The notes beneath the pieces were generated by a model. The model ran no database searches, was not told where the DNA came from, and saw only the letters and a program-made list of their open reading frames with translations. Position numbers and translations under genes: made by a program. From an uncultured Trueperaceae bacterium (GTDB lineage: Bacteria > Deinococcota > Deinococci > Deinococcales > Trueperaceae): a DNA stretch of 64,000 nucleotides. The DNA is taken from the NCBI GenBank assembly GCA_963799485.1, contig CAWCXJ010000009.1, positions 163,984 through 227,983 on the forward strand. The letters are read 5' to 3'. This document shows, piece after piece, positions 37,247 through 43,465 of the stretch; positions within the stretch are counted from its first letter, which is position 1; each line of letters starts with the position of its first letter.

Positions 37247-37284
37247 CTGACCCCATTTACGCCGTGACGTTTACGCCGTGACAT

Positions 37285-40221
37285 CTACGCTGCAACAGGT
37301 TCTTCTTTGCGTGCCCGCCCGAACGCCATCCGCAGTTTGAACATACCGCGTTTGTGCGCCGCCTTGACTGCCTCTTCAGACATACCTACGCTGTCGGCAA
37401 CGGTGGCAATGTCCTGGGCGCTCTCGCCGCGCATCCCCTCGAGCCTGACCACCACCTCGGCAACGTCGGCGTCCAAGTCACCTAAAAAGGGCTCGAGTTG
37501 ACGCGGCGTGGCTTTGGGGCCGGCGGGTTTTTTGGCGGTTTTGCCGGCAGCTTTCTGCGTTGCCTTTTTCGTTTTAGCCGCAGCCTTTTTCTTGCCTGCT
37601 GCTTTCTTCGCCCCGGTTTTCTTCGTCGGATGGGTGCGCTCACGTTCAGCCAAGAGTTCTAGCGCTTCCGCAAGCGTCACCGTACCGGGTTCTTGCGTCG
37701 TCAACGAGGCGTTCGTCTTCTGATGCTTGACATACGGCCCGTAACGCCCATCGCGCAGGTCAACGTCTTCGCCGGTTTCGGGATGTTGGCCCAAAACCCT
37801 GAGCGGTTTGTTCTTGAACTCTTTTTTCGAGATAAGCTCTAAGGCTCGCGGCAAGGCGACGCTGAGCACGTCGTCTTCTTTCGGCAGCGACGCAAAGGTG
37901 CTGCCGTGTTTGACATACGGCCCGAAGCGGCCGATGGCAGCCTGTACGTCCTTGCCGGTGTCCGGGTGCTGACCCAAGGTGCGCGGCAAAGACAGGAGTC
38001 CGGCGGCAAGCTCGTGGGTGACGGCGCTCGGCTCGAGCCCACGCGGCAGCGACGTGCGTTTGGGTTTGCCCTTGCGCTGCGTTCTCGCTTCGCTCGGGCC
38101 TTGCTCGTCGTCGCCGAGTTGCACGTACGGCCCGTAGGGGCCGGACTTGAGAATCATCACCTCACCGGTTTCAGGAAACGCGCCGATGACGTTGTCAGCC
38201 GCGTTGCCTTCTTTAAGGGCTTTCTCGAGGTATTCGCGGGTGACTTCATCAGGGGCGAGATCGGCGGGGAGCGAGGTCGTCACCGTTTCGCCGTCTATCA
38301 CACCCTCGGTATACGGCCCGAAACGCCCCACCCGCACCAGATAATCGCCCCACTTGGGAAAGCTCAAGGTCGAGATGGCTTTGGCGTCTACCTCTGCCAA
38401 ACTCAGCCGGGTACGCGCCTCGAGTCCCTCGCTACCACGGTAAAAGCGCTCCAAGTACGGTTCAGCCTCGAGGCCACCCGCTGCGATGTCGTCCAATACG
38501 TCTTCCATCTGCGCCGTAAAACCCGTGTCTACGAGTTGAGCGAACTGTTTTTCCAACAGGTTGTTCGTGGCAAACGCCGTAAACGTCGGGACGAGCTGCG
38601 AGCCGTTTTTACGGGCGTACCCCCGGTTGATAACCGTATCGATGATGCTCGCATAGGTACTCGGACGACCGATGCCTTCTTGCTCTAAGAGCTTGACCAG
38701 AGACGCTTCGGTAAACCGTGCGGGCGGTTTTGTCTCGTGGCCCAACGCGTCTAGCTTCTGACACCCGAGCGGGTCGCGTTCACTCAGTTCCGGTAACGGC
38801 TGCTCCTGGTCGTCTAGCGCGGCGTCCGGGTCGTCGGAACCCTCGACGTAGGCGCGGAAAAATCCGGCAAAGACGGTGGTGCGGCCCGACGCCCGAAACT
38901 CGGCCTGCTCTTTGCCCTGACCCACATGAATCCGGGCGGTCACAAATCTGAGGATAGCGTCCGCCATCTGCGTCGCCACGGTGCGTTTCCAGATGAGGTC
39001 GTACAGGCGGCCTTGGGGTCCGGAGAGCCCATGCTCACTCTGCGTTTTCATCTCGCGGCCCGCTGGACGAATCGCCTCGTGCGCCTCCTGTGCGTTTTTG
39101 GCCTTTTTGCTGTACGAGCGTGGGCTCGGGCTCAGGTAGTCCTTGCCGTAACGGGTCTGCACGGCCTTCCTTGCACCTTCGACAGCTTCGGTTGCCAGAT
39201 TGGTCGAATCGGTACGCATGTAGGTGATGTAACCGTTTTCGTACAACCCCTGGGCGAGGCGCATCGTTTCTTTAGCCGACAACCCGAGTTTGCGGCTCGC
39301 TTCTTGTTGCAGCGTCGAGGTGGTAAACGGCGCGGCCGGGGAGCGTTTGCCGGTGCGCTCCTCAACTTTGTGAACCTGCCACGCTTGACTCTTGAGGCGA
39401 GTCGCCAAGCTTTTGGCGTCGTTTTGCGCCAGTAGCAAGATGTCTTTTCCGGCGGTGAGGCCGTCTCTGAGTTTGCCGGTGTCGTCGTCGAAATCGCGAC
39501 CGGTGGCGAGCCGGACACCGCCCAGGTGCGTCATCACGGCGTCGAAAGCGTGTTGGGCTTTCTCGAGCCTGGCCTTCAAATCCCAGTAACTTGCCGGCAC
39601 AAACGCAATCCGTTCACGTTCGCGCATGACCATCAGCCGGACGGCGACGCTCTGCACCCGCCCCGCCGAGAGTTTCGGCGCGACTTTTTTCCATAGCAGC
39701 GGTGAGAGGGTGTAGCCGACCAGACGGTCTAACACGCGCCGCGTCTCCTGCGCGTCTACAAGGTGTTGGTCAATCGCCCTGGTCTCTTCCAACGCCCGCA
39801 TGATGGCAGCTTCGGTAATCTCGTGGAATACCATCCGGTGAACCGGCACTTTGGGGTTCAAGACCTCGACCAGGTGCCAGCCAATCGACTCGCCCTCGCG
39901 GTCTTCGTCGGTGGCGATATAGAGTTCATCGGCGTCTCTAAGCGCGGCTTTCAACTCACTGACGACTTTCTTCTTCTTCGCCGGGACGATATAGATGGGC
40001 TCGAAGCGGTCGTTGATGCCTAACCGCGCCCACGCCTGGTCTTTGTAGCTGCTCGGGATTTCGGCGGCGGAAGCGGGCAGGTCGCGCACGTGCCCCATCG
40101 ACGCCTCGACGCGGTACGACGACCCCAAAAAGCGCCGGATGGTCTTCGCCTTCGTCGGCGACTCGACGATAACGAGTCTGCGCGACCCGCCGCTAGCGCT
40201 TTTTTTCTGTGCCTGACTCAC
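37285..40221 (-). CDS. topA: DNA topoisomerase I with Toprim_C-type repeats, Lys/Ala-rich linker and C-terminal sigma4-like HTH
   Basis: IVESPTKA, ATDEDREGE, SAGRVQS, ITYMRTDS, AHEAIRP, GRPSTYA; GRFGPY repeats. Confidence 0.97.
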   Translation of the reverse strand: MSQAQKKSASGGSRRLVIVESPTKAKTIRRFLGSSYRVEASMGHVRDLPASAAEIPSSYKDQAWARLGINDRFEPIYIVPAKKKKVVSELKAALRDADELYIATDEDREGESIGWHLVEVLNPKVPVHRMVFHEITEAAIMRALEETRAIDQHLVDAQETRRVLDRLVGYTLSPLLWKKVAPKLSAGRVQSVAVRLMVMRERERIAFVPASYWDLKARLEKAQHAFDAVMTHLGGVRLATGRDFDDDTGKLRDGLTAGKDILLLAQNDAKSLATRLKSQAWQVHKVEERTGKRSPAAPFTTSTLQQEASRKLGLSAKETMRLAQGLYENGYITYMRTDSTNLATEAVEGARKAVQTRYGKDYLSPSPRSYSKKAKNAQEAHEAIRPAGREMKTQSEHGLSGPQGRLYDLIWKRTVATQMADAILRFVTARIHVGQGKEQAEFRASGRTTVFAGFFRAYVEGSDDPDAALDDQEQPLPELSERDPLGCQKLDALGHETKPPARFTEASLVKLLEQEGIGRPSTYASIIDTVINRGYARKNGSQLVPTFTAFATNNLLEKQFAQLVDTGFTAQMEDVLDDIAAGGLEAEPYLERFYRGSEGLEARTRLSLAEVDAKAISTLSFPKWGDYLVRVGRFGPYTEGVIDGETVTTSLPADLAPDEVTREYLEKALKEGNAADNVIGAFPETGEVMILKSGPYGPYVQLGDDEQGPSEARTQRKGKPKRTSLPRGLEPSAVTHELAAGLLSLPRTLGQHPDTGKDVQAAIGRFGPYVKHGSTFASLPKEDDVLSVALPRALELISKKEFKNKPLRVLGQHPETGEDVDLRDGRYGPYVKHQKTNASLTTQEPGTVTLAEALELLAERERTHPTKKTGAKKAAGKKKAAAKTKKATQKAAGKTAKKPAGPKATPRQLEPFLGDLDADVAEVVVRLEGMRGESAQDIATVADSVGMSEEAVKAAHKRGMFKLRMAFGRARKEEPVAA

Positions 40222-40397: not shown

Positions 40398-40988
40398 CTA
40401 TAACCGGCGACGGTTACTGATGGCGCGTCCTAAGGTTACTTCGTCGGCGTACTCGAGGTCGCCCCCGACCGGTAGCCCGTAAGCTATACGTGAAGTCGGA
40501 ACTTTCATCTCGCCAAGCAGCCGTGCTAGATACATCGCCGTCGCTTCACCCTCGACGGTCGTCGCGGTCGCCAGAATCACCTCTTCGACGTCTTTCAGCC
40601 GTGTCAGCAGCGGCTGTATGGTGAGTTGATCCGGCCCTACCCCGTTCATCGGCGAGAGCGAGCCGTGCAGCACGTGATAGAGCCCGCCGTATTCACCGGA
40701 ACGCTCGATCGCCAACAGGTCGGCGGGTTCTTCGACCACGCAAATCAGGTTCTGTTCGCGCTGCACGTCGGTACAAACGGCGCAACGCTCACTGTCGGTG
40801 ATGTTAAAACAAACTTCGCATTGCCGCAAACTGCCTTTGGCGTTCAGCAGCGCTTCAGCGAGGCCGCGCACCTCGTCGTCGGGCCGGTTGAAGAGGTGAA
40901 ACGCAAGCCGCTGCGCGCTTTTCGGGCCGATACCGGGAAGTCGTCCTAGCTCACGGATGAGCTGGGTCAAAGCGGGAGGGTATTTCAA
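40398..40988 (-). CDS. recR: Recombination mediator RecR
   Basis: LPGIGPKSAQRLAF, C4 zinc finger, YHVLHG, VEGEATA, GGDLEYAD. Confidence 0.97.
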   Translation of the reverse strand: MKYPPALTQLIRELGRLPGIGPKSAQRLAFHLFNRPDDEVRGLAEALLNAKGSLRQCEVCFNITDSERCAVCTDVQREQNLICVVEEPADLLAIERSGEYGGLYHVLHGSLSPMNGVGPDQLTIQPLLTRLKDVEEVILATATTVEGEATAMYLARLLGEMKVPTSRIAYGLPVGGDLEYADEVTLGRAISNRRRL

Positions 40989-41339: not shown

Positions 41340-43465
41340 CTAATCAGTGTCGGCGTCTAGTCCTACTTCCAAGTCTACCGTTTCAGGCGTGGCGTCGGCG
41401 TTGTCTGCTTCCGGGGCGGCGGGCGTTTCGGCGCTCTGCCAGCTAGTTACGTGGCCCGGAAACAGCTCGGTCAGGAGGATGAAGCGGGGGTCGGTCGCTA
41501 TGGGCCCGCTCAGCGGTTTTACGGTTTGTGCCGGCGCTCCCTGCGTCTGACGCGTCTCCGGCTGGTTGAAACCGGCTACGTTGTCGTCAGGGTAGCTCTC
41601 CCGCGAGTTTTGCGGCGCTCCGGGGAGGATAGGGTCGTCGCCCCAAAAGTCGGGTGGCAGTTCGTCGGCAAAAGGCTCGGGCGGCAGCGGCGCGGTTTCG
41701 GTGGGCGTCGGTGGAGATGCCGGAACTGTTCCGTCGGCCCGGATGCCGGGAGGAGGCTCGAGCGGTGGCTGAACCGGGCTGGGTTCTGTAACAACAGGTT
41801 CTGTAACAGCAGGTTCTGTGACAGCAGGTTTTACAACAACAGGTTTTACGGCGACAGGTTCTGCGTAGTCGGCTTTTACGGCGGGTTGGGCGCTTCTAGG
41901 TTGTTCGGTACGTCGCTCGGTGGGCGGCTCGGTTTGGCGTGCAGTCGGAGCGGCCCCTGGGCGCTCCGCTACGACTTTTTTGTGACACGTTCCCCCGGCC
42001 CCTCGAGGTGCAGCGTATACCCGTCGCCCAACACGTCTCTGACTAGCGTGACGAGTTCGTCCTGCCGGGTTTTAAGCTGGGTAAAGTGAAACTTGTGCGT
42101 GTCGGCAAACCGTAAAAAGATATCTGAACCCTCGATGTCGGCCTTGGCAGGCAACATAAACGCCTTGAGCTGCGTTCCGGCGCGGCTCTGCACGGTGTGC
42201 CACGAGGCTTTGGGGCGCTCAGGCTTGGCAGCTGGCGTAGATGGCGGCATGGGTTGCGCGGGTGTCGATGACGCCTCTAGGTGGGGCGGACGAACCGGCG
42301 CGGCGCGGCCCGTGGGGTTGAAGTCGGGCAGGTCGTTGGCTGTTGGGGCGGGGCGGGACGTAGGCTGCGCGGGTTGCGGTTGCACGCTCTGAGTCGTTTC
42401 GGAAGCTGATGAATCAGCAACCGGACGAGGGGCGTTTTGCGACAAGGCGTTGACGGCTTTGATGAGGGCGACCTCGAGCGAAAACAGGTCGTCGTAGCGG
42501 ACAAAGCGTTCCATCTCGTCGTCAAGCGCGTGGATCACCCGGAGCAGGTCGTCTTCGCCGAGCGTCAATGAAAACCCTTCGTCGAGCCCGACCTGGGTGT
42601 AGAGCGCGGCCCGCAGCTCCAAAGTCAGACGTTCAGCCAGACTGCGCGGCGCAAACCCGTCACGGTACAAGGCGCTCGCCTCACCGAACATGGCGCTTAG
42701 ATCGCGTTCGGCGAGCGACCGGGCGAGGGTTTGCATCCGGGTTTGTGGCGGCAGACCGAGGGCGCGTTCGGTGTCGTTTAAGGTGATGGTTGCGCCACTC
42801 GCCAGAAGGCGCTCCAGCAACGATTCTGCGTCCCGCATCGCACCGTCGGCGGCGCGGGCGACGAGGGTCAAAGCTCCCGGTTCGGCCTCGACTTTGGCTT
42901 CTTGCGTCAAATGCCCCAGCTTGCTCTCGATTTCAGCCTCAGAAAGCCGGCGAAAGCGGAAGTGCTGCGTCCGTGAAAGGATGGTCGGCGGCAACTTTTC
43001 CGGTTCGGTCGTGGCTAACACAAACACGAGACCTTCGGGGGGTTCCTCGAGCGTCTTTAGCAGCGCGTTCGACGCCGATTTGGATAACATATGCGCTTCG
43101 TCTAGCACCCACACCCGCCGCCCGCCGCGCACCGAAGACAGGTAGACCTTTTCGCGTAAATCGCGGATGTCTTCGACCGAGTTGTTGCTGGCAGCGTCGA
43201 GTTCAATGACGTCCGGGTGGCTTCCCTTTCGTACTAAAAGGCACGACTCGCATTCGCCGCACGGTTTCTCGCCTTGTTCGCAGTTGACCGCCATCGCCAA
43301 AAGCCGCGCCGTCGTGGTTTTCCCGACGCCGCGCGGCCCCGAAAACAGATACGCGTGACCGATGCGACCTTTGGAAAGCGCCGCTTGCAAGGGTGCTTTG
43401 ACGTGTTCCTGACCGATGACCTGGGCAAAAGTAATCGGCCTTGCACGCTGGTAAATCGCCGCCAT
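41340..43465 (-). CDS. dnaX: DNA polymerase III gamma/tau: 498-aa zero-frame product (stop 41969) and predicted ~708-aa -1 frameshift product (stop 41340)
   Basis: FSGPRGVGKTT, DAASN, DEAHML, LLKTLEEPP; A_AAA_AAG at 41975-41981 with the -1 frame open to 41340. Confidence 0.92.
41946..41996 (-). promoter_or_regulatory. Programmed -1 ribosomal frameshift signal in dnaX
   Basis: GGGGGA internal SD-like, 9 nt, A AAA AAG, 6 nt (TCGTAG), stem CGGAGCG/CGCTCCG. Confidence 0.85.

Follow-up and report, generated by a model that had tools for sequence, protein, structure and literature searches.

The topoisomerase I (TopA) of a Trueperaceae bacterium ends in a domain that derives from a sigma factor. 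The gene lies in a 64,000-nucleotide stretch of DNA, referred to here as the window, from an uncultured member of that family (GenBank assembly GCA_963799485.1, contig CAWCXJ010000009.1, positions 163,984 to 227,983 of the forward strand), in which the open reading frame (ORF) 37285..40221 on the minus strand encodes a bacterial type IA topoisomerase I. Our analysis confirmed that about 70 C-terminal residues of this protein are homologous to region 4 of sigma-70 (PF04545). The tail is not particular to one genome: across the phylum Deinococcota, TopA has long carried it in conserved form. The domain occupies TopA residues 902-973 (37303..37518, minus strand, as are all features of the gene given below), which we number as tail residues 5-76, and its delineation draws on profile searches of Protein Data Bank (PDB) sequences, Pfam matches of orthologues, an AlphaFold2 (AF2) model, and structural comparisons with Foldseek and VIA-align. 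An earlier note, made from the letters of this DNA alone, had called the end of TopA sigma70 region-4-like on the strength of a 49-residue string, which we find at TopA residues 916-964 and exactly at 37330-37476. The likeness held up in the sequence profiles, in the Pfam matches of orthologous tails and in the predicted fold. The marked extent does lie inside the domain, but the domain is larger, running from a region-4.1-like helix at ~37506 to ~37303.

Taken by itself, the tail matches PF04545 with an E-value of 0.0031 and 17.5 bits, under the 24.1-bit cut-off and only at model positions 24-49; as a control, region 4 of the sigma A from the same genome scores 69.3 bits. Seven weak sigma-family matches of the TopA protein were found in NCBIfam (E 0.0019-0.08). 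Among 28 orthologous tails, whose alignment provided the profile used in our searches, 24 match PF04545 at E<=1 (best 1.8e-8), and the Pfam cut-off is exceeded by 6 of 26, so that a Pfam match, to which the earlier note had looked, fails for the window's own tail and is obtained for these orthologues. Searched against PDB sequences, the 28-tail profile retrieves region 4 of RpoS first (E 4.4e-6), and sigma factors make up 54 of the 60 chains among the matches listed, in alignments covering profile positions 10-67. These positions span both region 4.1 and region 4.2, and the alignment is gapless for RpoS and for Thermus-type sigma A. Against a library of 1.84 billion representatives the same profile gives 378 matches at E<=1e-3, in which pieces of TopA rank first and sigma factors follow. 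The 29 proteins first scanned from the listed matches include 9 TopA pieces and 16 sigma-type proteins with PF04545, and a further 19 long proteins all carry PF04545, none of them being a TopA. The likeness to region 4 therefore exceeds chance, but it can be demonstrated only at the level of the family, since the single tail stays under the Pfam cut-off and the profile of its orthologues is significant.

The predicted structure points the same way. The AF2 model of the tail has a predicted local distance difference test (pLDDT) score of 85.4 and a predicted template modelling score of 0.72, with low pLDDT where the model begins on the linker side, and it contains four helices. Helix 1 (tail residues 9-18 by DSSP; 37477..37506) is region-4.1-like, with the invariant Leu at tail residue 12 belonging to its conserved motif xDLEPFL; helix 2 (residues 21-31; 37438..37470) is followed by a loop of the length found in group-1/2 sigma factors; helix 3 (residues 41-48; 37387..37410) is the first helix of the former helix-turn-helix; and helix 4 (residues 52-76; 37303..37377) has an acidic N-terminal half, which corresponds to the recognition helix of sigma, and a C-terminal half made up of the basic, nearly invariant motif HKRGMFKLRMAFGRARK. 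A short, poorly conserved C-terminal end, EPVAA (37288..37302), is unstructured, with pLDDT <50 at residues 78-81. The model thus predicts a sigma domain-4 fold, with two region-4.1 helices and a helix-turn-helix, as the earlier note had anticipated.

When this model was compared with the PDB by Foldseek, sigma region 4 topped the ranking, its best match having E 7.7e-3 and a root mean square deviation (rmsd) of 2.0 across 58 columns. Matches at E<=0.001 were absent, and all rows listed were sigma region 4 save two KorA entries. An independent comparison with 48,161 chains by VIA-align gave region 4 of SigR at Z 9.5 (rmsd 2.1, 65 residues aligned), and 13 of the 14 chains at Z>=8 are sigma domain 4. 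LuxR-type regulators, whose fold is related, reach Z 7.5 at most versus 9.5 for SigR, and of the 25 families that most of the 28 tails match, none is GerE. Small helical domains often reach fold scores of Z 7-8 by chance, and we find the fold matches persuasive because they agree with the sequence profiles. A chance resemblance of a small helical tail to region 4 could be argued from this frequency of Z 7-8, from the tail's own sub-threshold Pfam score and from Foldseek E-values of 0.008 or weaker. It is barely credible against the RpoS-led profile match with its predominance of sigma factors, the orthologues that pass the curated Pfam cut-off, the composition of the chains at Z>=8, and the sigma factors that follow TopA in the search of 1.84 billion representatives.

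Comparisons of sequence show the tail to descend from region 4 of a sigma factor of group 1 or 2. Helices 2 and 3 are separated by a loop as long as is typical of these groups, and when the tail profile was run against the 12 sigma-4-bearing loci of the same genome and two from relatives, it matched sigma-A-type factors only (28, 27 and 15 bits); no sigma factor of the extracytoplasmic function (ECF) type was matched among these loci. The lowest of these scores, 15 bits, belongs to the genome's own sigma A, whose region 4 shares ~19% identity with the tail (counted by hand). At that level of identity the capture must be old.

We regard the identity of the tail and its phylum-wide conservation as solid. 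In 28 of 41 related genomes it ends a frame of TopA size. A scan of public contigs with one narrow peptide pattern returned tail-bearing contigs named Truepera, Trueperaceae, Deinococcota, Deinococcales, Thermaceae, Calidithermus and Meiothermus. At all 80 public loci kept, the tail sits at the extreme C-terminal end of the TopA frame, 0-39 residues before the stop; five of the 80 have short frames, owing to frameshifts or masked stretches, and TopA sequence continues upstream of them. In a survey of the phylum with the tail profile, 156 of 301 genomes gave a match at E<=1e-5 (the tally includes one unpublished genome, G258, on which no claim depends). Matches were found in 85 of 102 genomes of the family of the source genome, in 14 of 14 of a group designated f3, in 10 of 10 of group f5, where they are weak, in 32 of 62 Thermaceae, and in 14 of 112 Deinococcaceae, where all are weak. 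The weak matches represent divergent versions of the same module, located at the end of TopA. A divergent tail is present in 41 of 41 Deinococcus genomes, on proteins that are the TopA of many species including D. radiodurans, and in 29 of 32 Thermus genomes. Conservation of the tail in relatives, which the earlier note had left to a taxonomic survey, is thus found throughout the phylum.

The divergent forms differ from the Truepera type. A profile-profile comparison of the Deinococcus tail with Truepera-type tails gave a probability of 97.3% and E 1.7e-11, covering helices 1-3 only; the last helix differs from that of the Truepera type and is strongly conserved. Searched alone against PDB sequences, the Deinococcus profile found no sigma factor and only a designed repeat protein, and it is through the profile-profile match to Truepera-type tails that the Deinococcus tail is tied to sigma region 4. 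Thermus tails are ~14 residues shorter around the end of helix 2, the loop and helix 3, and their model (pLDDT 79.6) has three helices without a helix-turn-helix, so the Thermus tail is predicted to have lost one helix and, with it, its helix-turn-helix. As a separate observation, the final 23 residues of the Deinococcus TopA tail are near-identical in 12 species (L191-L202), the preceding linker being variable, and constraint on this end looks stronger than on Truepera-type tails.

The domain follows TopA proteins of two kinds, those with Topo_C_Rpt repeats in Truepera and Deinococcus, and those with zinc ribbons in Thermus (L155, L160) and a Thermaceae metagenome-assembled genome (L108). The tail therefore either predates the split between the repeat types or has moved between them. 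Tails in tandem, two or three per protein, are seen in one or two genera of Trueperaceae, in many Meiothermus-like genomes and in two of Deinococcus. L029 has two copies and L014/L061 and L075 have three, each copy with its own Lys-rich spacer, and all copies that we read in L014 and L029 retain the conserved motifs. Further examples are found in G176, G255, G248, G160, G064, G090, G097, G199 and others, and, for Deinococcus, in G111 and G306. Tandem duplication is thus present in several independent lineages. Outside Deinococcota no fusion of TopA to sigma region 4 was found among 48 proteins (29 + 19) scanned of 150 listed matches, from a library without taxonomy, or in the narrow-pattern genome scan. 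The domain is largely absent from current annotation: among three sets of tail-bearing TopA proteins, PF04545 appears in the precomputed annotation of 1 of 42, 0 of 13 and 0 of 94.

Two kinds of other proteins that we came across carry related modules. Ten metagenomic proteins of 600-1700 amino acids (P0007, P0009, P0014, P0016, P0019, P0023, P0026, P0045, P0052 and P0072) have five to ten tandem sigma-70 region-4-like repeats, and some proteins of this kind add an N-terminal sigma-2 domain and TPR repeats; P0121 has a DnaA C-terminal helix-turn-helix. In P0030, of 371 amino acids, CbiG_C and a fragment of a tetrapyrrole methylase are fused to a pair of Toprim_C_rpt repeats with the tail; a chimeric gene call or a misassembly is the probable cause.

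Region 4 does two jobs in a sigma factor, recognition of the -35 element and attachment to the helix of the β-flap tip of RNA polymerase. We mapped the sigma-32 residues that serve each job onto the tail via a HMMER alignment, and calculated entropy over 100 distinct tails. The -35 contacts given in a study of the sigma-32 open complex are L253, E265, R266 and R268 (PMC10216364). Their equivalents are tail residues 41, 53, 54 and 56, with a mean entropy of 2.25 bits, and in the 100 tails the positions of E265, R266 and R268 are taken by E/D/A, E/D/A and K/A/E, respectively. The tail has thus lost the residues by which sigma reads the -35 element. The earlier note had proposed that such residues were replaced, and the corresponding positions do prove variable and mostly acidic or Ala. 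A tail that is still a sequence-specific helix-turn-helix and targets TopA to -35-like or other DNA sites would be in keeping with the sigma-4 fold predicted for Trueperaceae, helix-turn-helix included. That reading seems highly improbable given the variable Glu/Asp/Ala at the positions of R266 and R268, a recognition helix that begins acidic, and Thermus tails that are one helix short. Classical DNA reading through the helix-turn-helix is disfavored because the -35 positions are variable, the charge in this part is acidic, and one helix is gone in Thermus.

The other surface has fared differently. The flap-tip contacts of sigma-32 listed in the same study are A221, L225, W244, L245, L278 and E283 (PMC10216364), and their equivalents in the tail, T8, L12, G32, M33, L66 and G71, have a mean entropy of 0.57 bits versus 1.62 bits domain-wide. 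By permutation, 0.2% of random sets of six positions are equally conserved (p 0.002). L12 is invariant in 100 of 100 tails, and L12 and L66 are kept in all divergent forms. Of the four helices, the first and the C-terminal half of the fourth are retained, and the last 17 residues of helix 4 are almost invariant, whichever face they occupy. Over the 100 tails, residues 9-51 have a mean charge of -4.9 and residues 52-58 one of -1.5, and residues 59-75 average +6.6 (range +5 to +8). The pattern of conservation and charge shows selection on helix 1 and on the final part of helix 4, which line the flap-binding groove in sigma.

We suggest, with a little less than even confidence, that the tail is a docking module for RNA polymerase, in line with the tether to elongating polymerase that the earlier note had put forward. 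C-terminal regions of TopA bind RNA polymerase in Escherichia coli and Mycobacterium smegmatis, coupling relaxation to transcription, as set out in a review (PMC10969213). Docking is the best reading of the tail because the flap-side positions are kept, the DNA-reading positions are lost, and TopA C-termini bind polymerase in these two species. In the mechanism that we infer, the tail would no longer read DNA through its helix-turn-helix; its hydrophobic groove, as in sigma region 4, would hold the β-flap tip helix and so dock TopA on RNA polymerase. The docking site would be on the upstream side, by the RNA exit, which is where transcription makes negative supercoils and R-loops, and the flexible Lys-rich linker could give the catalytic part access to DNA in the wake of the polymerase. 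Further contacts, with nucleic acid or with an acidic patch, may come from the basic end of helix 4. More tentatively, we propose that throughout Deinococcota the tail lets TopA occupy the place of sigma region 4 on the β-flap tip helix, so that the enzyme rides on the upstream, RNA-exit face of the polymerase. If this is true, the tail would be a third, independently evolved means of coupling TopA to transcription, and TopA would compete with sigma, and possibly NusA, for the flap, linking the removal of supercoils to the switch from initiation to elongation.

Several points weigh against docking on the flap. Several of the flap-equivalent positions are core hydrophobic or glycine sites, for which reason folding alone could account for their conservation. 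Primary sigma factors have a short extra C-terminal helix that also touches the flap, and the tail is without it. The Deinococcus form has replaced the FKLRM..G.ARK motif. Tandem copies fit poorly with 1:1 docking, since there is one flap tip per polymerase. The flap tip is held by sigma region 4 at initiation and by NusA in elongation, so TopA would need to compete for it. Co-folding of the tail alignment with the β-flap domain of the same genome's RpoB, at RpoB residues 722-874, scored 0.00 in both runs, which had no controls, and weighs neither way. In favor of docking, an alignment of 29 related RpoB sequences shows almost complete conservation of the flap-tip segment itself, with one position near-invariant; an analysis of co-variation between tail and flap is impossible for that reason.

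The same basic helix could have another use. The tail may be a non-specific nucleic-acid module, in which the basic C-terminal helix, beside the Lys-rich linker, clamps DNA or RNA and the sigma-4 body is a mere scaffold; the gain would be in affinity or processivity, as with other TopA C-terminal repeats and lysine tails. The high positive charge of residues 59-75 and their nearly invariant motif, the Lys/Ala linker that precedes the domain, and a last helix that is still basic in the Deinococcus form although its motif differs are all consistent with a clamp, and two or three tandem copies are typical of DNA-binding repeats in TopA tails, for which tandem DNA/RNA-binding domains are described in a survey of C-terminal motifs (PMC9369019). 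We nonetheless consider a clamp, the main rival to docking, somewhat less likely than docking: the remainder of the domain is acidic, a plain basic helix needs neither the conserved helix 1 with its invariant L12 and PFL motif nor an exact FKLRM..G motif, and non-specific charge is already provided by the Lys-rich linker. If nucleic acid does prove to be what the tail binds, a promoter-reading domain would have been re-used as a non-specific clamp.

Conservation of the last 17 residues of helix 4 on every face also fits a helix buried in an interface, and the partner in that interface need not be polymerase. The tail could be a decoy or docking site for an anti-sigma-like or activator-like protein, or could fold back to regulate TopA, in a mimicry of the PhyR kind. 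The sigma-like domain of PhyR is among the fold matches (3t0y_C, Z 6.9), and many of the solved sigma-4 complexes that were matched are with small regulators, namely WhiB1, WhiB3, WhiB7, phage G1 ORF67, RsdA and RslA. No candidate partner was found, however, and nothing about one can be read from the neighboring genes, which are dnaX, recR and those for a DUF2254 membrane protein and an MscS channel; we judge such a decoy quite improbable and continue to favor docking on the polymerase.

The remainder of the protein is TopA. The topA coding sequence (37285..40221) consists of 978 codons and a TAG stop (37285-37287), and was recognized from the list of ORFs, its translation and TIGR01051 (topA_bact), which the protein matches with E 3.3e-228 and 759.7 bits versus a cut-off of 456.4. 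A Toprim domain (residues 16-135; 39817..40176; PF01751, E 6.5e-21) is followed by the type IA topoisomerase catalytic core (residues 150-590; 38452..39774; PF01131, E 6.1e-117). The translation contains both GYITYMRTDS and ATDEDREGE, which we take to be the catalytic tyrosine motif and the acidic Toprim motif of TopA, respectively. Next come four cysteine-free Topo_C_Rpt repeats with approximate borders (~residues 620-860; 37642..38364; PF13368, E 2e-56, 4 stretches), in which G[RP][FY]GPY motifs lie at residues 632, 694, 764 and 825, and then the Lys/Ala-rich linker (residues 863-901; 37519..37635), with 14 K and 11 A in 39 residues. Family scans of the 978-residue protein gave no match to Sigma70_r2 or Sigma70_r3, the remainder being TopA, and without a sigma-2 or sigma-3 domain the protein is not a sigma factor. 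In sigma factors, the sigma-2 domain contacts the β' clamp helices and recognizes the -10 element.

The minus strand carries the genes in the order dnaX, recR, topA, and beyond them, on the plus strand, lie genes for a DUF2254 membrane protein and an MscS-type channel; this neighborhood offers nothing on the function of the tail. With recR (40398-40988) and dnaX (41969-43465) directly upstream of topA on the same strand, the three form one DNA-metabolism cluster. For a plus-strand ORF of 212 codons at 41451-42089, no family match was obtained. Directly downstream of the topA stop codon, the 13-base unit TTTACGCCGTGAC occurs twice head to tail (37257-37282), and a third, degenerate copy overlaps the stop itself. 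The repeats sit between topA and a 90-codon ORF without a family match.

The earlier note had not recognized this architecture as described, and our literature searches likewise found no description of a sigma-like or helix-turn-helix tail on TopA. In a survey of TopA C-terminal motifs, the terms 'sigma', 'helix-turn-helix', 'Deinococc' and 'Thermus' are absent from the main text, and its supplements, which were outside the search, might list such architectures (PMC9369019). In the searched passages of a 2024 review, 'sigma' is not mentioned (PMC10969213). The same review describes the recruitment of TopA to negatively supercoiled DNA behind the polymerase as known in few species, each with its own C-terminal device (PMC10969213). 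Against this background, a domain derived from sigma has become fixed on TopA across an entire phylum, including Thermus, the source of many RNA polymerase structures, and the radiation-resistant D. radiodurans, and these two genera make the tail directly testable. Were it to bind the flap tip, it would offer a structurally tractable model of the coupling of TopA to polymerase, and a natural example of a sigma domain mimicked by a protein that is not a sigma factor.

Among the closest known systems is region 4 of sigma-70 factors, especially those of groups 1 and 2 such as RpoS and Thermus-type sigma A, with homologous sequence, the same four-helix layout and long loop, and the best structural matches, and the positions of the β-flap-tip contacts of sigma-32 are conserved in the tail. 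Unlike sigma region 4, the tail ends a topoisomerase, its -35-reading positions are acidic or variable, and it is without a sigma-like far C-terminal segment, its last helix continuing instead as the basic FKLRM..G.ARK. Another is PhyR, which imitates an ECF sigma factor by means of one part like sigma-2 and one like sigma-4, and binds an anti-sigma factor; the PDB title of 3t0y refers to an anti-anti-sigma domain bound to the anti-sigma factor NepR. Both PhyR and the tail are cases of a sigma-derived domain outside a sigma factor that does not read promoters, and the tail differs in being a lone domain of the group-1/2 sigma-4 type.

Among topoisomerases, E. coli TopA with its zinc ribbons and mycobacterial TopA with its Topo_C_Rpt repeats and basic tail resemble the Deinococcota enzymes in having an accessory C-terminal region beyond the catalytic core, and the Truepera protein shares Topo_C_Rpt repeats and a Lys-rich stretch with the mycobacterial one. 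The fold of the tail is another one, derived from sigma, and the polymerase contact that we propose would be the β-flap and not the sites used by these two enzymes. The TopA of Chlamydia trachomatis has likewise captured a foreign C-terminal domain of protein-interaction or chromatin type, a SWIB domain (PMC12445093). The captured domain and the phylum are different there, and the window's TopA matches the family NF004966 (DNA topoisomerase I/SWI domain fusion protein) over residues 14-582 only, with 489 bits versus a cut-off of 868. As an accessory of TopA, the sigma-derived tail of the Deinococcota takes its place alongside zinc ribbons, Topo_C_Rpt repeats, lysine tails and the chlamydial SWIB domain.

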